Positions 50,399-61,781 of a stretch of 64,000 bases of DNA are shown here, piece by piece. Under the pieces are notes generated by a model. That model ran no database searches. It had not been told where the DNA came from and saw nothing but the letters and a program-made list of their open reading frames with translations. The DNA is taken from assembly GCA_965261775.1 (NCBI GenBank), contig OZ253477.1:933239-997238 (forward strand). Direction: 5' to 3'. This stretch comes from Gammaproteobacteria bacterium. Lineage in GTDB: Bacteria > Pseudomonadota > Gammaproteobacteria > Eutrophobiales > Eutrophobiaceae. Made by a program: the position numbers and the translations under genes. Numbering within the stretch: the first letter of the stretch is position 1; each line of letters opens with the position of its first letter.

Positions 50399-52468
50399 TC
50401 AAGCGGTAATACCGGCGTGTCGCAACAAAGGTTCTATACTCGGTTCACGTCCGCGGAATTCCACAAATAAATCCATCGGATCACGGCTACCGCCTCGCTC
50501 CAATATGGCCCGTAAAAACTCCCGACCGGTTTTTCGATCAAAAATACCGTTTTCCTCAAATTTGGAAAAGGCGTCGGATGATAATACCTCGGCCCACTTA
50601 TAGCTGTAGTAACCGGCGGCATAGCCACCGGCAAAGATATGCGAAAAACTGTGTTGAAAGCGATTAAACGAAGGCACATCAAATACGGCGACCTGCTCTC
50701 GCACCGCGTTTAACAACGTCTGAATATCCATATCTTCACGATTAGCAAACTCCAGGTGCAAACGAAAGTCAAAGAGGGCGTATTCCAGCTGTCGCGCCAT
50801 ATCCATACCGGCGTGCAATACCTTGTCCCCGCGCATTTTTTCATACAAGACAGCATCAATCCGGTCGCCGCTGTCGATATGTCTGGCGAACAGATCCAGT
50901 GCCTCCTTTTCCCAGCACCAGTTTTCCATAAACTGGCTGGGCAGTTCGACTGCATCCCAGGGCACGCCGTTAATCCCCGATACACCGGCACAATCAACCC
51001 GGCTTAACAGATGATGAAGACCATGACCAAACTCGTGAAACATCGTAATCACCTCATCATGCGTCAACAAGGGAGGTTTACCACCGATGGGCGGAGTAAA
51101 ATTGCAGTTCAGATAGGCGACTGGATGCTGGATACCCTCTACCGTTTTCCGCCGGACAATACACTCATCCATCCAGGCGCCCCCCTGTTTGTTTTTACGT
51201 GCGTATAAATCAAGATAAAAGCCGCCTTGGGGTCTGCCAGCGGCATTAACAATATCAAAGAACATCACATCATCATGCCAGGTTTCAACACCTGCACGCT
51301 GTTTGATATTCACACCATAGAGTTTTCGAGTTACGGCAAAAAGACCTTCAATAACCTGCTTGACAGGAAAGTAAGGCCGCAACATCTCCTGCGAGAGGCC
51401 AAACTTTTCCTGCCGCAACTTTTGCGTATAGTATTCCACATTCCAAGCCTGGAGTTTTTTGACCTGCCCGACCCTTGCTGCAAATTTCGTTAAACGGGAA
51501 AATTCCTGCTGTGCTGCTGCATGGGTACACCGGGAAAGATCGTTGAGAAAGCGCATGACCTGCTTTGGATCTTTCGCCATTTTTGTCACAAGCGAATAGT
51601 GCGCGTAGCTTTCAAAACCCAGTAAGCGAGCCTTTTCCGTCCGATATTTGAGAATATCGTACATGATTTCACCATTATCCCATTGTGTGCCGCCGGGGAA
51701 CTGTTCAGAAGCGCGGGTAACATAGGCAGTGTACATTTCCTTTCTCAAGTCTTCACTGTCGGCATAGCGCATTACCGGCATATAGGAAGGAAAATCAAGC
51801 GTGAACAGCCAACCTCTTTTTCCCTCCTCCTTTGCGTTCTGCGCGGCGCTTTCAATGGCAGAGTCGGGCAATCCGCACAAGACATCTTTACAAGTGATCA
51901 GTTTTTTCCACGCACGGGTCGCGTCCAGCACATTCTCCGAAAAGCGGGTTTGCAATTTTGATAGTTTCTTTTGAATAGTACTGTAACGCTTCTTGTCGCG
52001 GGCATTCAGGTAAACTCCAGACAAACGAAAATCGCGCAGGGTGTTATGCACGGCTTTCCGTCGGGCGGGGCTCAATGACGTAAACGACGGGTCGGCAGCA
52101 ATAGCTTCAAAGGCATGGAACAAGGACTCATTCTGTCCTATCCAGGTTGTATAGTCGGATAGCTTTGTCAAACAGTTCCGATACGACCGGCGTAACTGTT
52201 TGTTATCCGCCACGGCATGTAAATGACGCACGGGAGACCAGTTTCGCTCCAGTACATCATCCATATCTTCAAGTTCCTGTAGCAAACTATCGCCGGTGTA
52301 ATGCAATGTCCGTTGCAGCAAAGACTCAATACGCTCACGATTAACCGTTATCAAATCGTCAATGACAGGTTCAATATCCACCGCCCTGATAGAAGCGAAG
52401 GCGGGCAGACCATCCGCCCCGAGCAGAGACTTATTCCCGTCATGAGACAAGGTAAATACCTCTACCAT
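50399..52468 (-). CDS. prlC: oligopeptidase A (M3 family)
   Basis: HEFGHGLHH zinc motif. 689 aa. Confidence 0.9.
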   Translation of the reverse strand: MVEVFTLSHDGNKSLLGADGLPAFASIRAVDIEPVIDDLITVNRERIESLLQRTLHYTGDSLLQELEDMDDVLERNWSPVRHLHAVADNKQLRRSYRNCLTKLSDYTTWIGQNESLFHAFEAIAADPSFTSLSPARRKAVHNTLRDFRLSGVYLNARDKKRYSTIQKKLSKLQTRFSENVLDATRAWKKLITCKDVLCGLPDSAIESAAQNAKEEGKRGWLFTLDFPSYMPVMRYADSEDLRKEMYTAYVTRASEQFPGGTQWDNGEIMYDILKYRTEKARLLGFESYAHYSLVTKMAKDPKQVMRFLNDLSRCTHAAAQQEFSRLTKFAARVGQVKKLQAWNVEYYTQKLRQEKFGLSQEMLRPYFPVKQVIEGLFAVTRKLYGVNIKQRAGVETWHDDVMFFDIVNAAGRPQGGFYLDLYARKNKQGGAWMDECIVRRKTVEGIQHPVAYLNCNFTPPIGGKPPLLTHDEVITMFHEFGHGLHHLLSRVDCAGVSGINGVPWDAVELPSQFMENWCWEKEALDLFARHIDSGDRIDAVLYEKMRGDKVLHAGMDMARQLEYALFDFRLHLEFANREDMDIQTLLNAVREQVAVFDVPSFNRFQHSFSHIFAGGYAAGYYSYKWAEVLSSDAFSKFEENGIFDRKTGREFLRAILERGGSRDPMDLFVEFRGREPSIEPLLRHAGITA

Positions 52469-52495
52469 CCCGCCAGCTCTAGTTTATACGGTCGG

Positions 52496-53470
52496 TCAGG
52501 AAGCCAGACGCAGGCTGATCAAGTAAAACGCAGTAGCGCCGCATAGACAAAACAGGATTAACCAAAACAGGGAATGAAGATGCAGTTTCCGGGTCAGGGT
52601 ATTCTGTTCAACGGCGGACAGAATGAATGGCCGCCGACTGTCGTTGGTTTTACCTATCCGATTGATCGGTGGTATTTTTTTCCGTTCGCCATATTTCTTT
52701 TTGGCCTCCTGATAAGCGGCTTCCCTGACTTTCTGCCATTCCTGCATGGACAGTTTGCCGTCTTTATTTGAATCAAACCGTTTCATTAACGTTTCCGTAT
52801 CTTGTTTCCATTCACGCAACAAGTCGCGTACATCGGCATTGACGTCAAGTGTCGTGCCCGCCCCACCTATCGTCTCGTACAGGCCAATAGCATAAAGACG
52901 ATTACCGGGATATAACAATTTCTCTGTATATCGATACTTCTTAAAGCTGCCCCCAAAACCGCTAAGAGAAATAAGTTTGTCCAAAGCGGGTATTTTACGC
53001 GCTGTTGGCGGACGGCGCGAGGGCGTATCGCTGTCGCCATACCACACATAGCCGTCTTTAACAGTAACGGACGCCCTCTCGGGGTCAATGATACATTGAC
53101 CGGTTTCATCTTTAATCAGAAACAACGAATCGCTCGCCTCTCTACGTACGGTATACCATCTGTTGCTTTTCGAGGTTGTCCTCCGCTTTTCAAGCCGATA
53201 TTCATACCAGAGACAGGTATCGCCGGAGAATGGCGAGGTAATGGGCTGCCCCTCGATCAAGTGGCCATGGCCGACAAGCTCAACATAGCCCTGCGAGGCG
53301 GAGCGGATCTTTGCGGTCGGCGTATCTTCAATAATGCGTTTTCGGTGGATCAGGCTGAAGGTACGGAAAAAAGAAACTCCACAGATGATCACCAATAAAA
53401 CGGCGTAAAACCAGAATTCATCGTCAGGCGCATTTTCAACCCACTGCGCCACTTTTGAAAAGATACCCAT
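52496..53470 (-). CDS. double-TM membrane protein with EF-hand Ca-binding loop, tandem copy 1 (possible GIDE-like family)
   Basis: N-terminal TM FWFYAVLLVIICGVSFF, C-terminal TM LFWLILFCLCGATAFYLISL, EF-hand loop DSNKDGKLSMQE. AGGAGG Shine-Dalgarno. Confidence 0.7.
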   Translation of the reverse strand: MGIFSKVAQWVENAPDDEFWFYAVLLVIICGVSFFRTFSLIHRKRIIEDTPTAKIRSASQGYVELVGHGHLIEGQPITSPFSGDTCLWYEYRLEKRRTTSKSNRWYTVRREASDSLFLIKDETGQCIIDPERASVTVKDGYVWYGDSDTPSRRPPTARKIPALDKLISLSGFGGSFKKYRYTEKLLYPGNRLYAIGLYETIGGAGTTLDVNADVRDLLREWKQDTETLMKRFDSNKDGKLSMQEWQKVREAAYQEAKKKYGERKKIPPINRIGKTNDSRRPFILSAVEQNTLTRKLHLHSLFWLILFCLCGATAFYLISLRLAS

Positions 53471-53482
53471 CTCGTAGACCTC

Positions 53483-54064
53483 CTAGCCGAAAAGCGCCTT
53501 GATATCTACATCCTTTTTTTCTTCCTCGTCAAATTCAAGCAAACTCGCCTCACGAAAGGCCAGCGCTCTGGCCACAATGATATCCGGGAACTGTTCAATA
53601 CGGATATTGTTGACGTTGACCGACTCATTATAAAATTCGCGGCGGTCGGCAATAGCGTCTTCAAGACCCGATATCCTGGTCTGCAGATGATTGAATGTCT
53701 CATTGGCCTTTAAGTCGGGATAAGCCTCGGCCAGGGCAAATAAATTACCAAGACCCAGCCGCAACTGGCCTTCCGCCGGGCCGAGGGAGGCAATATCCCC
53801 TTGTTCTCTGGCCGCCGCCACAGCAGCCCGCGCGCGCATCACCTTTTCCAGTGTCTCCTGTTCAAAACCCATATATTGCTTACAGGTATCGACCAGCTTG
53901 GGAAGCTCTTCATGGCGCTGTTTCAGCAAGATATCAATATTGGACCACGACTTGGTGACATTATGCTTCAACGACACCAGATTGTTATAAATGACCACGC
54001 CATAGACCACAACGGCCACAATAGCAAAGACGATAACCAATAAAATAACGCTCAACACTTCCAT
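53483..54064 (-). CDS. lemA: LemA family protein (intact copy)
   Basis: N-terminal TM then the LemA domain (...NLFALAEAYPDLKANETF...YNESV). GGGAGG Shine-Dalgarno before ATG 54064. Confidence 0.8.
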   Translation of the reverse strand: MEVLSVILLVIVFAIVAVVVYGVVIYNNLVSLKHNVTKSWSNIDILLKQRHEELPKLVDTCKQYMGFEQETLEKVMRARAAVAAAREQGDIASLGPAEGQLRLGLGNLFALAEAYPDLKANETFNHLQTRISGLEDAIADRREFYNESVNVNNIRIEQFPDIIVARALAFREASLLEFDEEEKKDVDIKALFG

Positions 54065-54210
54065 TATTGCCTCCCGCACTTTTACGCCAAAGCAAAGCTA
54101 AAGTTACAGTATACCTGTGGTTTTTTCATTCACACAATGCGAATGGCCGGCCTCATTCACAATACAGCGCTTATTTACTATAGTAATCCCTATTATATAT
54201 CTTTTTCAAT

Positions 54211-54303
54211 ATCCGCTGCCTTGATAGAAGCGAAGGCGGGCAGACCATCCGCCCCGAGCAGAGACTTATGCCCGTTATGAGACAAGGTAAATACCTCTAC
54301 CAT
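54211..54303 (-). pseudogene. duplicated 5' fragment of prlC (start codon plus about 30 codons) carried along in amplification unit 2
   Basis: About 90% identical to 52377-52468. The ATG is retained and the frame closes after about 36 codons. Confidence 0.8.
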
Positions 54304-54330
54304 CCCGCCGACCCCGGTTTATGCGGTTGG

Positions 54331-55269
54331 TCAGGAAGCTAAACGCAGGCTGATCAAGTAAAACGCAGTAGCGCCGCATAGACAAAACAGGATTAACCAT
54401 AACATAGAATGAAGATGCAGTTCCCGGGTCAGGGTATTCTGTTCGACGGCGGACAGAATAAATGGCCGCCGACTGTCGTTGGTTTTACCTATTCGATTGA
54501 TCGGTGGCATTTTTTTCCGTTCGCCATATTTCTTTTTGGCCTCCTGATAAGCGGCTTCCCTGACTTTCTGCCATTCCTGCATGGACAGTTTGCCGTCTTT
54601 ATTGGTGTCAAACCGTTTCATTAACGTTTCCGTATCTTTTTTCCATTCACGTAACAAGTCGCGTACATCGGCATTGACATCAAGTGTCGTGCCCGCCCCA
54701 CCTATCGTCTCGTACAGGCCGATAGCATAAAGACGATCACCGGGATACAACAATCTCTCTGTATATCGATACTGATTATTAAAGTTGCTCCCCTCGGATA
54801 TTTTACGCGCTACTGGCGAACGGTGCGAAGGCATAGCGCTGCCATACCACACATAATCGTCTTTAACAGTAACAGACGCCCCCTCGGGGTCAATGATACA
54901 TTGACCGGTTTCATCTTTAATCAGAAACAACGAATCGCTCGCCTCTCTACGTACGGTGCGCCATACGTCCCTTATTAATAGGTTCATCAAGTTTATCTCC
55001 TGCTTTTCAACCTGATATTCATACCAGAGACAGGTATCGCCGGAGAGCGGCGAGGTAATGGGCTGCTCCTCGATCAAGTGGCCATGCCCGACAAGCTCAA
55101 CATAGCCCTGCGAGGCGGAGCGGATCTTTGCGGTCGGCGTATCTTCAATAATGCGTTTTCGGTGGATCAGGCTGAAAGTATAGAAAAAAGAAACTCCACA
55201 GATGAACACCAAGAAAACAGCGCGAAACCAGAATTCATAGGCAGGCGCATTTTCAACCCACTGCGCCAC
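54331..55269 (-). CDS. EF-hand double-TM membrane protein, tandem copy 2. Codon 7 is a nonsense mutation (AAA to TAA); the ORF continues from the adjacent GTG
   Basis: Minus strand reads ATGATGGGTATCTTTTCATAAGTGGCGCAG. Downstream sequence is about 85% identical to copy 1. EF-hand loop DTNKDGKLSMQE. Confidence 0.6.
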   Translation of the reverse strand: MAQWVENAPAYEFWFRAVFLVFICGVSFFYTFSLIHRKRIIEDTPTAKIRSASQGYVELVGHGHLIEEQPITSPLSGDTCLWYEYQVEKQEINLMNLLIRDVWRTVRREASDSLFLIKDETGQCIIDPEGASVTVKDDYVWYGSAMPSHRSPVARKISEGSNFNNQYRYTERLLYPGDRLYAIGLYETIGGAGTTLDVNADVRDLLREWKKDTETLMKRFDTNKDGKLSMQEWQKVREAAYQEAKKKYGERKKMPPINRIGKTNDSRRPFILSAVEQNTLTRELHLHSMLWLILFCLCGATAFYLISLRLAS

Positions 55270-55299
55270 TTATGAAAAGATACCCATCATGCAGACCTC

Positions 55300-55437
55300 C
55301 TAGTCGAAAAGCGCCTTGATATCCACACCCTTTTTTTCTTCCTCGTCAAATTCAAGCAAACTCGCCTCACGAAAGGCCAGCGCTCTGGCCACAATAGCAA
55401 AGACAATAACCAATAAAATAACGCTCAACACTTCCAT
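55300..55437 (-). pseudogene. lemA remnant: an in-frame internal deletion leaves a 45-codon miniprotein (N-terminal TM fused to the C-terminal tail). The deletion junction is at the 9-bp direct repeat ATTGTGGCC
   Basis: By alignment to the intact lemA, the 96-nt 3' end is joined directly to the 42-nt 5' end. Frame and ATG are retained. Confidence 0.75.
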
Positions 55438-55555
55438 TATTGCCTCCCGCACTTTTACGCCAAAGCAAAGCTACAGTATACCTGTGGTTTTTTTCATTCA
55501 CACAATGCGAATGGCCTCCATTTACCATCCCGCCGACCCCGGTTTATGCGGTCGG

Positions 55556-56545
55556 TCAGGAAGCTAAACGCAGGCTGATCAAGTAAAACGCCGCAATGCC
55601 GCCTATCCAAAACAGGGCGAACCATAACATAGAATGAAGATGCAGTTTCCGGGTCAGGGTATTCTGTTCAATGGAGGACAGAATAAATGACTGCCGACTG
55701 TCGTTTGTTTTACTCATCAGATTGATCGGTGCCATTTTTTTCCGTGCGCCATGTGTTTTTGTGACATCCTGATAAGCGGCTTCCCTGACTTTCTGCCATT
55801 CCTGCATGGACAGTTTGCCGTCTTTATTGGTGTCAAACCTTTTCTTTAACGTTTCCGTATCTTCTTTCCATTCACGCAACAAGTCGCATACATCGGCATT
55901 GACATCAAATTCTGCGTCCGCCCCACCGATGGTCTCGTACAGACCGATAGCGTAAAGACGATCACCGGGATACAACAATCTCTCTGTATATCGATACTGA
56001 TTATTAAAGTTGCTCCCAAAACCGCCAGGAAAAACAAATTTGTTCAAATCGGATATTTTACGCGCTACTGGCGAACGGGATGAGGGCATGTCGCTGTTGC
56101 CATACCACACATAGCCGTCTTTAACAGTAACAGACGCCCCCTCGGGATCAATGATACATTGACCGGTTTCATCTTTAAGCAGAAACAACGAATCGCTCGC
56201 CTCTCTACGTACGGTGCGCCATACGTACCCTCTGAAGTAGTTTATTGATGTTGTCGTCTGCTTTTCAACCTGATATTCATACCAGAGACAGGTATTACCG
56301 GAGAACGGCGAGGTAATGGGCTGTCCCTCGATCAAGTGGCCATGGCCGACAAGCTCGACATAGCCCTGCGAGGCGGAGCGGATATTTGTGGTCGGCGTAT
56401 CTTCAATAATGCGTTTTCGGTGGACCAGGCTGAAGGTACGGAAAAAAGAAACCCCACAGATGATTACCAATAAAACGGCACAAACCCAGAATTCATAGGC
56501 AGGCGCATTTTCAACCCACTGTGCCACTTCTGAAAAGATACCCAT
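55556..56545 (-). CDS. EF-hand double-TM membrane protein, tandem copy 3
   Basis: MGIFSEVAQWVENAPAYEFW... 329 aa. EF-hand loop DTNKDGKLSMQE. Confidence 0.7.
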   Translation of the reverse strand: MGIFSEVAQWVENAPAYEFWVCAVLLVIICGVSFFRTFSLVHRKRIIEDTPTTNIRSASQGYVELVGHGHLIEGQPITSPFSGNTCLWYEYQVEKQTTTSINYFRGYVWRTVRREASDSLFLLKDETGQCIIDPEGASVTVKDGYVWYGNSDMPSSRSPVARKISDLNKFVFPGGFGSNFNNQYRYTERLLYPGDRLYAIGLYETIGGADAEFDVNADVCDLLREWKEDTETLKKRFDTNKDGKLSMQEWQKVREAAYQDVTKTHGARKKMAPINLMSKTNDSRQSFILSSIEQNTLTRKLHLHSMLWFALFWIGGIAAFYLISLRLAS

Positions 56546-56557
56546 CTCGTAGACCTC

Positions 56558-56690
56558 CTAGCCGAAAAGCGCCTTGATATCTACATCCTTTTTTTCTTCC
56601 TCGTCAAATTCAAGCAAACTCGCCTCACGAAAAGCCAGCGCTCTGGCCACAATAGCAAAGACGATAATCAATAAAATACGGCAACCATTA
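56558..56690 (-). pseudogene. second lemA remnant: same deletion junction as 55300-55437, plus loss of the in-frame ATG
   Basis: Alignment to the intact lemA. The N-terminal region has diverged and the only ATG is out of frame. Confidence 0.65.
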
Positions 56691-56773
56691 TCCACAACAC
56701 AGCGCCTATTTACTATATAATAAACTCTGCTCATATATATTTTTTAACGTATATTTAAGACAGGGAAAAGATC

Positions 56774-57238
56774 ATGCAAAATGATAAAAAAACCATTGAA
56801 CATCTCAATAAAATTCTCAAAAACGAATTGACAGCCATCAATCAGTATTTTTTACACTCTCATATCTACCGAGACTTTGGATTGTTAGAACTGGCTGATC
56901 GTGCACATCAGGATTCTCTTGATGAAATGAAACATGCCGACAAACTGATTGCTCGCATATTATATCTCAAAGGATTGCCGAACTTACAGAATCTGGGCAA
57001 GCTCAGAATCGGCGAAAATACCAAAGAAATACTGGAGGCTGACCTGTCCCTAGAAAAGCAAGCTATCCCGGATTTGAAGGCCGCCATCAATCATTGCGAG
57101 TCTCAACAGGACTACGTCTCGCGCGCTCTGCTTGACGCTATCCTGACAAGCGAGGAAGAGCATGCAGACTGGCTGGAAACGCAATTGAGTCTACTGGAAA
57201 AAATCGGCCTCAAGAACTACCTGCAATCAAAGATGTAA
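56774..57238 (+). CDS. bfr: bacterioferritin
   Basis: LNKILKNELTAINQYFLHSHIY...DEMKHAD (Met52 heme ligand). 154 aa. Confidence 0.92.
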   Translation: MQNDKKTIEHLNKILKNELTAINQYFLHSHIYRDFGLLELADRAHQDSLDEMKHADKLIARILYLKGLPNLQNLGKLRIGENTKEILEADLSLEKQAIPDLKAAINHCESQQDYVSRALLDAILTSEEEHADWLETQLSLLEKIGLKNYLQSKM

Positions 57239-57634: not shown

Positions 57635-57826
57635 ATGTATATCTGTATCTGCAATGCTGTTACGGAAACCGATATTGAACGCGCTGTTGAAACCGGCGTG
57701 GACTGCATGCAGCGCCTCCAATCAGAGTTGGGGATCAGTACACGTTGCGGGGCCTGTATACGCGACGCAGAACGTTGCTTTGACAAGATATTGGAAAAAT
57801 ACGGTGGTCTGATCCCGACTTCGTAA
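57635..57826 (+). CDS. bfd: bacterioferritin-associated ferredoxin (BFD-like [2Fe-2S] domain)
   Basis: MYICICNAVTE...CGAC is the Cys pattern of Bfd. 63 aa. Confidence 0.85.
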   Translation: MYICICNAVTETDIERAVETGVDCMQRLQSELGISTRCGACIRDAERCFDKILEKYGGLIPTS

Positions 57827-58024: not shown

Positions 58025-59029
58025 ATGAGACTACCGTTACTTATCCTCATTTTACTCATTCCCATGCAACTTGCCGCACAAGAAGTAAACCTTTACTCTG
58101 CGCGCAAAGAAATATTGATAAAGCCATTGCTTGATCAATTTACCCAGCAGACCGGCATTGGTGTCAATCTGGTCACCGCCAAAGCAGATACGCTCCTGGA
58201 GCGACTGGAAGTAGAAGGCCGCGCCACACCAGCCGACATTTTATTGACCGTGGACGCCGCGCGTCTTGTACGTGGCAAGGAAAAAGGGCTGTTTCAACCG
58301 ATTGATTCTGCCGTTTTGGAGCAGGCGATCCCTGAAAACTATCGAGACCGCGACAAACAATGGTTTGGTCTGTCGCTACGTTCGCGCGTCATTGTCTACG
58401 CGCCGGAGCGGGTGGTTCCATCCATGCTGCACCGTTATCTGGATCTGGCCGATACGCGCTGGCGGGGGCGGCTCTGTATACGCTCGTCTTCCAATATTTA
58501 CAACCAGTCTTTAGTCGCCGCGATGATTGTCCGGTACGGTATTGAGAAGACCGAACGCTGGGCGAAGGCACTAGTCGACAATTTCGCCAGATCGCCCAGA
58601 GGCGGCGACCGCGATCAAATCAAAGCCGTGGCCGCTGGCGTCTGTGATGTTGCGCTGGTCAATAACTATTATCTTGCGGGCATGCTGACCTCATCTGAAC
58701 AGGAAGAAGTCGAGGCCGCCAAAAAAGTCAAGCTGTTCTGGCCTGATCAGGATGGCCACGGCGCACATATCAATGTAAGCGGCGGCGCCATATTGAAGTC
58801 GGCACGGCACCGACAAGAGGCCGTCAGGCTGTTGGAGTTCCTTGTTAGTGACGCGGCACAACGCTGGTACGCTGAAAAAAATCACGAATATCCGGCCAAT
58901 CCAGCAATAGAAAAGAGCGCGATACTCCGCGACTGGGGTAATTTCAAAACCGATAACCTGGACCTGAATCTGTTGGGTGAATACAACGCCGACGCTGTCA
59001 AACTGATGGACCGCGCGGGTTGGAAATAA
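58025..59029 (+). CDS. fbpA: Fe(3+) ABC transporter periplasmic substrate-binding protein
   Basis: Signal peptide then VNLYSARKEILIKPLLDQF, the FbpA/AfuA family. 334 aa. Confidence 0.85.
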   Translation: MRLPLLILILLIPMQLAAQEVNLYSARKEILIKPLLDQFTQQTGIGVNLVTAKADTLLERLEVEGRATPADILLTVDAARLVRGKEKGLFQPIDSAVLEQAIPENYRDRDKQWFGLSLRSRVIVYAPERVVPSMLHRYLDLADTRWRGRLCIRSSSNIYNQSLVAAMIVRYGIEKTERWAKALVDNFARSPRGGDRDQIKAVAAGVCDVALVNNYYLAGMLTSSEQEEVEAAKKVKLFWPDQDGHGAHINVSGGAILKSARHRQEAVRLLEFLVSDAAQRWYAEKNHEYPANPAIEKSAILRDWGNFKTDNLDLNLLGEYNADAVKLMDRAGWK

Positions 59030-59041
59030 CCCGACCGACGT

Positions 59042-60733
59042 ATGCCCGCTTCGTCTGTGCCACAAACTGACTTTCCGCCGCCCGGTCGCGGGTGGCCGGG
59101 GTCTTTGCCGTCAAAATCAAACATTCTCCTGCTCCTTATCTCGCTACTGTTCAGCATCCCGCTGATGGTAATATGCGGTTCGTTGCTGTTTCCCGCACGG
59201 GAAATATGGGCGCATCTGATTGACACGGTATTACTGGATTACATCAGTAATTCCCTACTGCTCCTGACCGGCGTCGCGGCCTTGAGCCTCATCCTCGGTG
59301 TTATCCCCGCCTGGCTGGTCACCATGTACCGTTTCCCTTTAAGCCGCCAGCTTGAATGGGCCCTGTTGTTGCCGATGGCGATGCCGGCCTATATCATCGC
59401 CTACAGTTACGCCGGGATGCTGGATGTGACCGGACCCGTTCAAACCCTGCTACGAGAACTGAGCGGCTGGAATTATTATGACTACTGGTTTCCAGATGTG
59501 CGGTCACCGGGCGGGGCCATCATTATGCTGGCCTTGGTGTTGTATCCCTATATCTATCTGCTGGCACGCGCCGCATTTATTGAACAATCCATTTGCGTGC
59601 TGGAAGTCTCACGCACTCTGGGCTGTAACAGTGTAAATGCCTTCCAGCGCGTCGCCCTGCCGCTGGCTCGACCGGCCATCATCGTGGGGCTATCTCTGGT
59701 CGTCATGGAAACCCTGGCTGACTATGGCACGGTGCAATACTTCGGTATACCTACCTTTACCGTTGGCATCTTCAGAACCTGGTTCGGTCTTGGCAGCAGT
59801 CTGGCAGCGGCGCAATTGGCCGCCTTGTTACTCTGTTTCATCGCCGTGTTTTTATACCTTGAAAAACAATCCCGCCGTCGTGCGCGTTTTCATCATACCA
59901 GCAATCGCTACAGCAATTTGATGCAAAAACAATTACGCGGCAGGCACGCTGTGCTGGCATTGTCATACTGCCTTTTGCCACTGTGCTTTGGTTTTATCCT
60001 GCCACTATGCCGCCTGCTTGGTCAGGCGTTGAACACTTATGCCGATATTCTTGATTCCGGTTTTTATCGTCTTCTGCTGCACAGTCTCTCTTTAGCCTTT
60101 GCGACGGCATTGCTTGCCCTGGCACTGGCGCTGTTTATGGCCTATACTAACCGCAGCAACCGTTCCCGCCTCAACATTTTCATGGCGCGTTTTGTCAGCC
60201 TGGGTTACGCTATCCCCGGCACGGTCGTCGCAGTGGGCGTATTGATCCCATTTTCCTGGTTCAACAGCGCCGCGGATACGCTCCTGCCCGCCTGGTCTGG
60301 CGTTGACAATGGCCTGTTCATCTACGGTAGCCTGTTTACCCTGGTCTTCGCCTATCTGGTACGGTTTCTGACGGTCTCAATCAATACGGTAGAAGCGGGG
60401 CTGGACAAGATAAAACCGGAAATGGACGAAGCAGCGAAAGCGGCGGGGGCATCACCCTCCAACATCATTAAACGGATACATATACCGATGATGCGTGGCA
60501 GTTTGTTGACAGCGCTGTTGCTGATTTTCGTTGATGTGTTGAAAGAACTGCCTGCCACACTGATACTGAGGCCGTTCAATTTTAATACCCTGGCCGTGCG
60601 CGCCTATGAATTCGCCAATGAAGAACGTCTGGCAGATGCGGCAGTCCCCGCGCTGGCCATCGTACTGGCCGGTATTATTCCGGTCATCCTGATCAGCAAT
60701 TCAATCTCGAATTCCCGCCCCGGTCATGCCTGA
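59042..60733 (+). CDS. fbpB: Fe(3+) ABC transporter permease (two fused permease domains)
   Basis: 563-aa polytopic protein with duplicated EAA-type permease halves. Confidence 0.85.
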   Translation: MPASSVPQTDFPPPGRGWPGSLPSKSNILLLLISLLFSIPLMVICGSLLFPAREIWAHLIDTVLLDYISNSLLLLTGVAALSLILGVIPAWLVTMYRFPLSRQLEWALLLPMAMPAYIIAYSYAGMLDVTGPVQTLLRELSGWNYYDYWFPDVRSPGGAIIMLALVLYPYIYLLARAAFIEQSICVLEVSRTLGCNSVNAFQRVALPLARPAIIVGLSLVVMETLADYGTVQYFGIPTFTVGIFRTWFGLGSSLAAAQLAALLLCFIAVFLYLEKQSRRRARFHHTSNRYSNLMQKQLRGRHAVLALSYCLLPLCFGFILPLCRLLGQALNTYADILDSGFYRLLLHSLSLAFATALLALALALFMAYTNRSNRSRLNIFMARFVSLGYAIPGTVVAVGVLIPFSWFNSAADTLLPAWSGVDNGLFIYGSLFTLVFAYLVRFLTVSINTVEAGLDKIKPEMDEAAKAAGASPSNIIKRIHIPMMRGSLLTALLLIFVDVLKELPATLILRPFNFNTLAVRAYEFANEERLADAAVPALAIVLAGIIPVILISNSISNSRPGHA

Positions 60734-61781
60734 AGCCGTCACGGTAAAAAACCTTTCCGTCCAGATAAGAGGGTGCGAAATATTAAAAAATGTCTCGTTT
60801 TCCCTGTCTGAGGTGGAGATTGCCTGTCTGCTGGGACCAAGTGGTTGCGGCAAGACGACCCTGTTACGCTGCATCGCCGGGTTTGAACGGCCACAACGGG
60901 GCGAAATCTGGATAAGGGGAGTCCACGCAAGCGATCCTGTGCGGCAGATCCCCGTTGAAAAAAGGCTGGTCGGCATGGTGTTTCAGGACTACGCCCTGTT
61001 TCCACATCTTGATGTCGCGGGGAATATCACCTTCGGATTACAGGGGCTCAAACCGGAGGAAACTAGACGGCGCCTAGATGAGTTGCTGGAACTGTTTTCC
61101 CTGCAAAGCCATGTCCATCACTACCCACATGATCTGTCTGGCGGACAGCAACAGCGAGTCGCTCTGGCGCGTGCCATGGCCCCCTCCCCCGATGTATTAT
61201 TGCTTGATGAACCCTTTGCCAGCCTTGATATTGAATTGAGAGAGCAAATCGCCCGCGAATTGCATCAAATCCTGAAACAGCACAGGATTACCACCATTAT
61301 GGTCAGCCACAATCAGCTTGAGGCATTCGCCATGGCCGATGTGGTGGGTATTATGAACGAGGGGCGCCTGTTGCAATGGGATACAGCCTTCAAACTCTAT
61401 CATCAGCCCGCTTCCCCTACCGTGGCAGATTTTATCGGCGAAGGCGTCTTTATTCCAGGAAGGATCATTGATGACTACGCCGTCAAAACCGAAATCGGCG
61501 ATATTCACGGGCACAGTCCACACGGTATGAAACGCGGTCAAAGCGTCAAGGTACTGCTACGGCCTGACGACATATTGCACGATGATAGCAGCCAGATGAA
61601 TGCTCTAGTGAAGGAAAAGGCGTTTCGCGGAGCCGCATTTCTTTATACGCTTGAGCTTACCAGCGGTCGCCGAATACTGAGCCTGGTCCCCAGCCACCAT
61701 GATCACCCGGTGGGAAAACCGATTGGCATCCGCACGGAAATTGATCATCTGGTTATTTTCCGGAGAACGGAAGCAGGATGA
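60726..61781 (+). CDS. fbpC: Fe(3+) ABC transporter ATP-binding protein
   Basis: Walker A GPSGCGKTT, LSGGQQQRVALARA, LLLDEPFASLD, and a C-terminal TOBE-like domain. Confidence 0.88.
   Translation: MPEAVTVKNLSVQIRGCEILKNVSFSLSEVEIACLLGPSGCGKTTLLRCIAGFERPQRGEIWIRGVHASDPVRQIPVEKRLVGMVFQDYALFPHLDVAGNITFGLQGLKPEETRRRLDELLELFSLQSHVHHYPHDLSGGQQQRVALARAMAPSPDVLLLDEPFASLDIELREQIARELHQILKQHRITTIMVSHNQLEAFAMADVVGIMNEGRLLQWDTAFKLYHQPASPTVADFIGEGVFIPGRIIDDYAVKTEIGDIHGHSPHGMKRGQSVKVLLRPDDILHDDSSQMNALVKEKAFRGAAFLYTLELTSGRRILSLVPSHHDHPVGKPIGIRTEIDHLVIFRRTEAG

Follow-up and report, generated by a model that had tools for sequence, protein, structure and literature searches.

A tandem three-unit lemA-gide array between bfr and prlC, with a probable origin by operon duplication

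Analysis of a 64-kb window, the whole stretch of DNA under study, confirmed that the minus strand between bfr and prlC carries a tandem array of three direct repeats, which was recovered in the open reading frame (ORF) list, by a repeat finder and by self-blastn. We interpret the array, at a probability of roughly 60%, as a duplicated lemA-gide operon in which the GIDE protein would act as a Ca2+-binding partner of LemA.

The units occupy positions 52370-54204 (unit 1, 1835 bp), 54205-55522 (unit 2, 1318 bp) and 55523 to about 56720 (unit 3, about 1.2 kb), in agreement with the original prediction of units of about 1.8, 1.3 and 1.2 kb. Unit-against-unit nucleotide identity was 88-94% over segments of 0.5-1.1 kb, and with blastn E = 0 at these identities the repeat stands far above chance. 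The paralogous proteins are 77-86% identical, so that the copies have diverged as predicted, the proposed figure of about 85% being slightly low for DNA. Every unit carries a gide ORF on the minus strand with transmembrane (TM) helices at both ends, and the expected TM-soluble domain-TM topology was seen in all three: gide1 (52496..53470, 324 aa), the middle copy gide2 (54331..55290, 312 aa) and gide3 (55556..56545, 329 aa). Tandem repeats are prone to mis-assembly, but an assembly artefact is extremely improbable here. The units differ by 6-12% and have their own indels, junctions and remnants, unlike collapsed or expanded identical repeats, and the same three units were found in the same order on an 18.2-kb contig, L001, which derives from a different strain and from another metagenome and ENA assembly. 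L001 is collinear with the array region of the window at 98-99% identity, and since it was assembled independently, it argues that the array is real, as had been supposed.

The upstream boundary of the array is bfr (56774..57238, plus strand; bacterioferritin type, 154 aa), which is divergent from it. Downstream of gide1, after a gap of 27 nt, lies prlC (50399..52468, minus strand; oligopeptidase A type, 689 aa), which is probably co-transcribed with gide1. Both were called as ORFs in the window, and their identities were taken from the Pfam families of the syntenic L001 genes (TOP_N and Peptidase_M3 for prlC, Ferritin for bfr). Pieces of these flanks recur inside the array. A dead 99-nt copy of the first 33 codons of prlC at the end of unit 2 (54205..54303, minus strand), 94% identical to 52370-52468, marks the junction of units 2 and 1, and L001 carries the same duplicated fragment. 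At the junction of units 3 and 2 (55523..55528, minus strand), self-blastn and inspection of the sequence revealed ATGGTA, codons 1 and 2 of prlC, fused to the lemA 5' leader. The start of unit 1 repeats the bfr-lemA intergenic (promoter-region) sequence (54149..54204, minus strand), one side of a duplication junction, and this copy has the string tatagtaaata[a/g]gcgctgt[a/g]ttgtg in common with the original intergenic sequence upstream of unit 3 (56685..56720, minus strand). Promoter-like hexamers in 54149..54204 showed no excess over shuffle expectation; the promoter for gide3 and gide2 may lie in 56685..56720.

As predicted, lemA is intact in unit 1 only (53483..54064, minus strand; 193 aa). 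The gene starts at an ATG behind GGGAGG, the ORF listing extending it to a GTG at 54079, and its stop codon overlaps the gide1 ribosome-binding site (RBS; TAGGAGG). The protein matches PF04011 at 146.7 bits (cut-off 26.2) and PDB entry 2ETD at E 2e-24, with a TM helix at the N-terminus and a helical bundle behind it. The remnants in units 2 and 3 share one in-frame deletion of 444 nt (148 codons), bounded by 9-nt direct repeats, ATTGTGGCC, that lie at 54022-54014 and 53578-53570 in the intact gene. In unit 2 this leaves a 45-codon ORF (55300..55437, minus strand) encoding the TM helix fused to the last 29 LemA residues, for which no Pfam match was found. The unit 3 remnant (56558..56678, minus strand) has also lost its native start codon and RBS, and the 58-codon ORF called there begins in unrelated upstream sequence.

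Comparison with related genomes indicated how ordinary the basic pairing is. The original prediction regarded GIDE as an unusual partner for LemA, a view that the neighbourhood survey overturned: lemA lies directly upstream of a single GIDE/EF-hand gene in 79/79 informative related species-level genomes, and gide is multiplied in none of 80 other species. Among the 80 related loci, which occupy a conserved place in the chromosome surrounded by housekeeping genes, prlC follows gide within 400 nt in 48 and bfr is divergent upstream in 28. Judged from these loci, the pairing is ordinary in the clade and the multiplication alone is lineage-specific, and the comparison shows a single operon at a conserved chromosomal site, with bfr reading away from lemA-gide-prlC, as the ancestral state. 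Haloarchaeal PF12483 genes are not adjacent to lemA, and the pairing therefore does not extend across the family; one archaeal GIDE gene adjoins a prohibitin-family gene.

From this state, a block comprising the intergenic leader, lemA, gide and the first 99 nt of prlC was duplicated in tandem in this species, which left the prlC fragment joined to a leader copy at 54204/54205. Slippage or recombination between the 9-nt repeats then removed 444 nt from one duplicated lemA, and because both remnants carry the same deletion, the deleted unit was copied once more, or the deletion spread by gene conversion. The outcome is three gide genes with one lemA serving all of them.

Conflict systems often show tandem paralogue expansion and fast-evolving loops, and a phage or toxin interface had been proposed for this locus. 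The searches lent that proposal no support, and an anti-phage defence or toxin-immunity module on mobile DNA is very unlikely. PADLOC gave no meaningful match (the sole hit was DndH, E 0.0098, for one copy), and tblastn returned nothing from 50,697 phage records and a single remote archaeal match from 72,556 plasmids. The array resembles its surroundings in GC content, there is no tRNA in the 64-kb window, and neither an integrase nor any other mobile-element gene was recorded among the L001 genes syntenic with the array flanks. The conserved position among housekeeping neighbours across 80 species also speaks against it.

Comparison of the gide copies between strains (labelled W1-W3 in the window and X1-X3 in L001) pointed to unequal constraint. 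The dN/dS ratios were 0.19 for W1-X1, 0.09 for W3-X3, which rests on small counts (2 non-synonymous and 6 synonymous changes), and 0.81 for W2-X2; copies 1 and 3 differ between strains by 5 and 2 amino acids, and gide3 and its L001 orthologue share 99.2% identity. At the sequence level, then, copies 1 and 3 are shown to be held by purifying selection between strains. Between paralogues, dN/dS was 0.6-0.95 and dS 0.11-0.17 (about 0.13-0.17 for gide1 against gide3), compared with a dS of 0.01-0.04 between strains, and by this comparison the array is shown to be older than the split of the two sampled strains. Positions conserved across the family are violated at 3, 3 and 5 of 78 sites in the window paralogues (family median 2). 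Differences between W1 and W3 fall largely in loops 92-106 and 146-178 of the predicted OB-fold (32/77), with 7 in the 107 OB-core positions; both loops are hypervariable family-wide, and the paralogues also differ in their TM helices. Of the predicted diversification, the multiplication was borne out and the sequence component was weak, being concentrated in two family-hypervariable loops, with purifying selection acting on copies 1 and 3 and copy 2 relaxed.

The middle copy has a different history. Its ancestral ATG at 55290/55287 is followed six codons later by a GAA-to-TAA nonsense codon (55272-55270), the ORF restarts at an adjacent GTG (55269), and roughly 10 residues of loop 146-178 are deleted. 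In L001 the RBS of the middle copy is weakened, and the conserved F19, W20 and EF-loop glycine are gone. The copy is a patchwork of tracts resembling unit 1 and tracts resembling unit 3, with many private changes besides. It looks near-neutral, relaxed or decaying and not adaptively diversified. Paralogue dN/dS values near 1 and middle-copy decay are also compatible with duplication without adaptive value.

Some of these features would fit a neutral segmental duplication in the course of being lost, its extra gide copies useless and the conservation of copy 3 a reflection of a recent strain split. Both extra lemA copies are destroyed, the middle gide is damaged in each strain, the paralogue ratios are high and none of the 80 other species has more than one copy. 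We consider this possible but doubtful, as gide3, at a dS of about 0.13-0.17 from gide1, still has its 329-codon frame unbroken and retains 73/78 family-conserved positions, its between-strain ratio is low even if the counts are small, and units 1 and 3 are 99% identical over the lemA 3' end with the gide RBS where their ORFs are 88.6% identical. That near-identical tract could also suggest recent gene conversion, as would be expected if the promoter-less, start-damaged middle copy were a silent donor that swaps loop sequences with the expressed copies and so alters a phage-facing or outside-facing surface. Such cassette variation would agree with the patchwork make-up of the middle copy and with its private changes, which cluster in the two variable loops and TM1. 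At 31 sites W2 and X2 show opposite unit 1/unit 3 states, and they are 88% identical where the flanks are 98-99% identical, a difference of 12% against 1-2%. Cassette variation is nevertheless unlikely. There are three copies only, copies 1 and 3, which ought to be the expressed and varying ones, are nearly constant between strains, the private substitutions have no adenine bias and thus no DGR-like signature, and no recombinase or reverse transcriptase gene adjoins the array in the window ORF list or the L001 annotation. The soluble domain is, moreover, predicted to be cytoplasmic and so unexposed to outside agents, and the phage and defence association was not found by PADLOC or tblastn.

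The operon-duplication reading assigns a specific architecture to the GIDE proteins. All three paralogues pass the PF12483 (GIDE/BAM) threshold of 23.6 bits, at 40-45 bits (40 bits for gide2 and for gide3), which upholds the GIDE resemblance suggested in the original prediction. From the N-terminus they consist of a TM helix (TM1), a predicted beta-barrel of OB-fold type, a single EF-hand helix-loop-helix and a second, C-terminal TM helix (TM2), with the protein stopping five residues beyond TM2. The database name E3 ubiquitin ligase was rejected, since there is no RING or ubiquitin-ligase domain. The EF-hand loop reads DSNKDGKLSMQE or DTNKDGKLSMQE; in gide1 it is DSNKDGKLSMQE (residues 233-244; 52739..52774, minus strand), canonical at positions 1, 3, 5, 6, 8 and 12 and modelled between helices 225-232 and 242-265. 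The canonical loop of the original prediction was found conserved in 115/119 homologues and in 146/149 cluster representatives. A search with the family profile recovered troponin C EF-hands at E 2e-5, and the window proteins score 23.1-25.5 against the EF-hand Pfam model, just under its curated cut-off of 25.9. EF-hands usually occur paired; here there is one per protein.

The soluble domains of GIDE and LemA probably both face the cytoplasm. For GIDE this rests on the positive-inside rule, with a mean K+R of 5.2 on the domain-side flanks and 2.0 on the tails across 119 homologues. For LemA it rests on the protein's own charge distribution, the post-TM segment being K/R-rich and the N-tail acidic, and from published descriptions and models of LemA-like domains as four-helix scaffolds at the cytoplasmic face (bioRxiv 10.64898/2026.07.15.738315). 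A periplasmic OB-fold and EF-hand domain, with Ca2+ as a permanent structural ligand, would instead resemble human MAPL/MUL1, whose BAM domain lies in the intermembrane space (PMC4457424). Two cysteines occur in the soluble domain of 89/119 family members, and the conserved C86 and C126 could form a disulfide, which would argue for that location. We hold it only as a tentative alternative, because the charge distributions of both proteins favour the cytoplasm and a partner on the opposite side could contact LemA via TM helices only.

With a cytoplasmic domain, the GIDE protein would bind Ca2+ and, clamped to the membrane, pair its OB-fold with the four-helix bundle of LemA, the two forming a membrane-proximal scaffold whose state might respond to Ca2+, for example upon Ca2+ entry after membrane damage. 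The extra GIDE copies may then offer the one LemA a choice of partners whose binding surfaces have changed, and an envelope or membrane role is plausible. The conserved function of BAM/GIDE has been called an open question (PMC4457424), and no experiment or function is known to have been published for any bacterial member.

With prokaryotic BAM/GIDE proteins (PF12483), whose family also includes the intermembrane-space domain of human MUL1/MAPL/GIDE, the array proteins share the Pfam assignment, two flanking TM helices as in MAPL (PMC4457424) and the absence of a RING. They differ in forming a subfamily with a single EF-hand inserted after the beta domain and before TM2, and with lemA always upstream, neither of which holds for the haloarchaeal genes, and in a probably cytoplasmic orientation, unlike the intermembrane or periplasmic one of MUL1/MAPL. 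The EF-hand loop shares D1, N3, D5, G6, a hydrophobic residue at 8, E12 and two flanking helices with troponin C and calmodulin, but it is single, unpaired, in a membrane protein and just under the Pfam cut-off, and Ca2+ binding is putative. The unit 1 gene is a clear LemA family member (PF04011; 2ETD) at 147 bits, with the TM helix and helical bundle; MamQ of magnetosomes belongs to the same family. Commonly cited LemA partners are TPM/DUF477 or DUF2207 proteins, which are absent here; the partner is GIDE/BAM and two of the three lemA copies are reduced to the TM helix and last 29 residues. There is no sequence relationship to SPFH (stomatin/prohibitin)-NfeD operons: none of the array proteins matched an NfeD or SPFH Pfam family at E <= 1, and LemA has a four-helix bundle where those operons have an SPFH domain. 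NfeD carries an OB-fold, and these operons likewise consist of two genes, a membrane-anchored helical scaffold followed by an OB-fold membrane protein, so that LemA-GIDE may operate in a manner loosely analogous to the SPFH-NfeD pair, as a likeness and not as membership.

The array lies on the minus strand between prlC and bfr, and the three-unit structure originally predicted for it was correct in all essentials. Read from bfr (56774-57238, plus strand), the minus-strand order is the lemA remnant of unit 3 (56558-56678), which lacks a native ribosome-binding site (RBS) and start codon, gide3 (55556-56545, 329 aa), the 45-codon lemA remnant of unit 2 (55300-55437), gide2 (an open reading frame at 54331-55269, 312 aa), a 99-nt copy of the prlC 5' end (54205-54303, the first 33 codons, 94% identical to 52370-52468), a copy of the bfr-lemA leader (54149-54204), the sole intact lemA (53483-54064, 193 aa) and gide1 (52496-53470, 324 aa), which is followed after 27 nt by prlC (50399-52468, minus). 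The units, numbered from the prlC side, measure 1835, 1318 and about 1200 bp, and their homologous segments are 88-94% identical in DNA, with the gide reading frames at 88.6-92.1%. Gaps of 12 nt and 27 nt indicate that lemA and gide are probably co-transcribed with prlC, the oligopeptidase A gene; a consensus scan for promoters and terminators returned sites no more numerous than in shuffled sequence, so transcription units are assigned from spacing only. Rfam and tRNA scans of the window gave no matches. An inverted repeat, CCGACC-N11-GGTCGG, is found 3' of every gide stop (52470-52495, 54305-54330 and 55530-55555, minus strand); it has no T-run, and may act between gide and prlC in RNA processing or attenuation. 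Adjoining bfr is a 63-aa Fer2_BFD-type reading frame (57635-57826), and beyond it lie the substrate-binding protein, permease and ATPase of an ABC transporter (58025-61781), both assigned from the Pfam families of the syntenic genes in L001, an ENA contig from another strain. The array thus abuts an iron-handling cluster.

L001, an 18.2-kb contig, was reached through a protein with 78% identity to GIDE1. It aligns collinearly with the window (98.3-98.8% identity), and its genes run bfr, remnant, 330-aa gide, 45-aa remnant, 324-aa gide, prlC fragment, lemA, 324-aa gide, prlC. The same gene order in a different, independently assembled strain rules out an assembly artefact. At the unit 2/unit 1 junction, prlC codon 33 is fused to part of the intergenic leader between bfr and lemA, a piece that also survives upstream of unit 3, indicating tandem duplication of a segment comprising leader, lemA, gide and the truncated prlC. 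The prlC fragment at 54205-54303, also present in L001, keeps its upstream hairpin and reads as a 36-codon dead-end frame. The unit 3/unit 2 junction differs: there the lemA 5' leader adjoins just the first two prlC codons, which points either to a second event or to the subsequent loss of about 150 nt. Both lemA remnants have lost the identical 444 nt in frame (148 codons, one repeat copy included) between 9-nt direct repeats, ATTGTGGCC, at 54022-54014 and 53578-53570, so the deletion arose once and was then copied. In gide2, a GAA-to-TAA change lies six codons past the ancestral ATG, and the frame goes on from an adjacent GTG. The triplication is an ordinary kind of evolutionary event.

Profile searches placed all three paralogues in PF12483 (GIDE/BAM; 45.4, 40.0 and 40.0 bits, cut-off 23.6), bearing out the original suspicion of a GIDE-like protein, and their homologues likewise carry precomputed PF12483 annotations. 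The family is large: a search at E <= 1e-3 gives 7,133 clusters, and the tighter limit of E <= 1e-30 still leaves at least 1,094 (50% identity). An AF2 model built on 119 homologues (pLDDT 92.2) predicts a first transmembrane (TM) helix at residues 16-49, a beta domain at 61-201, helices across 210-265 that enclose the EF loop between helices 225-232 and 242-265, two short strands, and a second TM helix at 289-323; hydrophobic stretches in the sequence agree with the two TM helices that hold the beta domain between them. In the model this domain has a predicted OB-fold, judged as a five-stranded closed beta-barrel superposable on known OB-folds; a Foldseek search of the PDB gave no significant match. 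The mitochondrial ligase MUL1/MAPL has an intermembrane-space domain to which bacterial BAM/GIDE proteins are related, and the conserved function of the BAM domain has been called an open question (PMC4457424). The window proteins end five residues beyond the second TM helix and gave no RING or zinc-finger Pfam match at E <= 1, in keeping with the report that no prokaryotic BAM protein has a RING (PMC4457424). The database label 'E3 ubiquitin ligase' is therefore a misnomer here, and we reject a MUL1/MAPL-type ligase for lack of a C-terminal RING after the second TM helix. The intact lemA product has an N-terminal TM helix, scores 146.7 bits with PF04011 (cut-off 26.2; 148 of 149 profile positions covered), and is matched by the crystal structure 2ETD (E 2e-24); the unit 2 and unit 3 remnants gave no PF04011 match. 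NCBIfam matches were all sub-threshold, to XopAW (EF-hand) and MamQ (LemA).

Each GIDE protein has one EF loop, with the paralogue sequences DSNKDGKLSMQE and DTNKDGKLSMQE, and these are canonical in the sense of a 12-residue loop with D1, D/N/S3, D/N/S5, G6, a hydrophobic residue at 8 and E/D12, set between two helices, which here are seen in the AF2 model. The loop is kept in 115 of the 119 homologues and, when clusters are formed at 50% identity, in 146 of their 149 representatives, so that the original EF-hand call stands and the condition set for refuting it, a loop not conserved among homologues, does not hold. EF-hand_5 scores on the window proteins fall just under the cut-off of 25.9 (23.1, 25.5 and 23.7 bits), many GIDE homologues carry precomputed PF13202 or PF00036, and the family profile, compared with the PDB by sequence, matched EF-hand proteins only (troponin C, E 2e-5).

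The original prediction had treated GIDE as an unusual partner for LemA, which the survey of other genomes overturned. Sampling one genome per species returned 80 loci, all from gammaproteobacterial-type MAGs or symbionts, among them Sedimenticola, Thiodiazotropha, Thiohalomonas and a Solemya symbiont, with GIDE identities of 37-55%. Wherever upstream DNA exists, lemA lies directly upstream on the same strand (79/79), and no locus has more than one gide gene (0/80); the pairing of LemA with an EF-hand GIDE is thus the subfamily norm, and only the triplication is species-specific. A better description of the locus is a lemA-gide(EF) operon, conserved but uncharacterised, which has undergone triplication in this species. 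PrlC is encoded within 400 nt downstream of gide at 48 of the 80 loci, and bfr is divergent upstream at 28. LemA, at 59-79% identity across loci, is far more conserved than its GIDE partner. Upstream of lemA, some 2-5 kb upstream of gide, several relatives (L002, L006, L008 and L014) have a tandem pair of bfr paralogues, with about 50% and 68% identity to the window Bfr, where the window has one. The lemA pairing does not extend to every PF12483 gene, being absent at four haloarchaeal loci (L082-L085, the first being the Salinirubellus plasmid NZ_CP147842.1), whose PF12483 genes are also without an EF-hand. At one of these loci the PF12483 gene is transcribed away from neighbouring prohibitin/SPFH and DUF3592 genes, and at two HSP20 and an ABC1/UbiB kinase come next downstream; such neighbours, at very few loci, hint at a stress or scaffold theme. 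The literature searched contained no paper mentioning LemA and GIDE together, and that on the LemA family, the TPM domain and MamQ topology was uninformative as to how the pair functions. The operon joins known families in a conserved pairing that is undescribed.

Nei-Gojobori estimates from a purpose-written script gave dS of 0.11-0.17 between paralogues (dN/dS 0.6-0.95), as compared to window-L001 values of 0.041 for gide1 (dN/dS 0.19), 0.028 for gide3 (dN/dS 0.09) and 0.01-0.04 for flanking genes, which places the duplications several times further back than the divergence of the two strains. Copies 1 and 3 are now under constraint, as judged from small substitution counts. Of the 78 positions with at least 90% conservation elsewhere in the family, each window paralogue retains 73-75. 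GIDE1 and GIDE3 differ at 13 of 15 positions in loop 92-106 and 19 of 33 in loop 146-178, both hypervariable throughout the family, and at 7 of 107 positions in the OB core. The tract spanning the last 29 lemA codons and the gide RBS (53483-53592, 55300-55409 and 56558-56667) is identical in units 1 and 3 at all but 1 of 110 nt, beside gide reading frames only 88.6% identical, which points to recent conversion or strong constraint. The remnants, in frame and made up of a TM helix and the LemA tail, raise the idea that this tail may be what the GIDE protein needs.

The middle copies behave differently, being only 88% identical between strains (L001 7222-8196, window 54331-55290), with dS 0.158 and dN/dS 0.81. 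This 12% divergence, between flanks that diverge by 1-2%, exceeds the synonymous divergence of neighbouring genes. Private substitutions, 30 in the window copy and 46 in that of L001, cluster in the first TM helix and the two variable loops, and at 31 further sites the two copies are in opposite unit 1-like and unit 3-like states. In the L001 copy F19, W20 and the EF-loop glycine are gone and the RBS is weakened; the window copy has the early stop and a loop deletion. Relaxed constraint alone is a partial explanation of the divergence, and the pattern fits relaxed constraint combined with gene conversion between units, or else the uneven survival of older ones. It does not resemble directed diversification: a diversity-generating retroelement target was rejected because the private substitutions of the two copies involve all bases with no adenine bias, and the array flanks contain no reverse transcriptase gene.

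Across the 119 homologues, K+R residues average 5.2 on the domain-side flanks of the TM helices and 2.0 on the short tails, and the LemA segment after its TM helix is also basic; under the positive-inside rule, these flanks suggest that the soluble domains of both proteins face the cytoplasm. Orientation is the main uncertainty in what follows. Two conserved cysteines, and the position of the MUL1 BAM domain in the intermembrane space, favour a periplasmic GIDE domain, an arrangement that the 5.2 to 2.0 charge distribution speaks against and that we consider rather unlikely. With a cytoplasmic orientation, GIDE would be a Ca2+-binding OB-fold pressed to the inner membrane face by its two helices. 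LemA-like bundles have been modelled as membrane scaffolds at the cytoplasmic face (bioRxiv 10.64898/2026.07.15.738315), and we favour a model in which GIDE may work with a LemA bundle as a Ca2+-responsive membrane scaffold. In a more far-reaching version, to which we give a probability of about 0.12, the conserved pair would be an undescribed bacterial membrane module in which a two-helix-clamped OB-fold reads Ca2+ and regulates a LemA scaffold in membrane repair or remodelling, revealing the ancestral job of the MUL1/MAPL BAM domain; here it would be diversifying into a small set of paralogues that share one LemA or use mini-LemA remnants (TM helix and C-terminal tail), with loops swapped by gene conversion.

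Whatever the mechanism, a large GIDE subfamily of at least 1,094 clusters emerges that is lemA-coupled in every one of the 79 informative genomes surveyed, with a near-invariant EF-hand and a predicted OB-fold, and Ca2+, LemA and the OB-fold loop surfaces offer testable handles on the function of bacterial BAM/GIDE proteins. The triplication serves as a natural experiment, in which the two OB-fold loops and the TM helices tolerate change, the OB core and EF loop do not, and extra GIDE copies persist without a LemA of their own.

A role at a phage or toxin interface, also proposed originally, found no support, as the sole PADLOC-DB 2.0 match was of one copy to DndH (E 0.0098), phage records held no GIDE homologue, and plasmid records gave one remote match only. 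The locus also differs from the LemA-TPM (DUF477) operon, in which a TPM gene stands beside lemA: no TPM match was found in the three downstream proteins or in the L001 genes syntenic with the array flanks. The arrangement is reminiscent of the SPFH-NfeD operons. The array proteins gave no NfeD or Band_7 Pfam match at E <= 1, and the likeness is in logic only, a scaffold encoded together with a membrane OB-fold partner.
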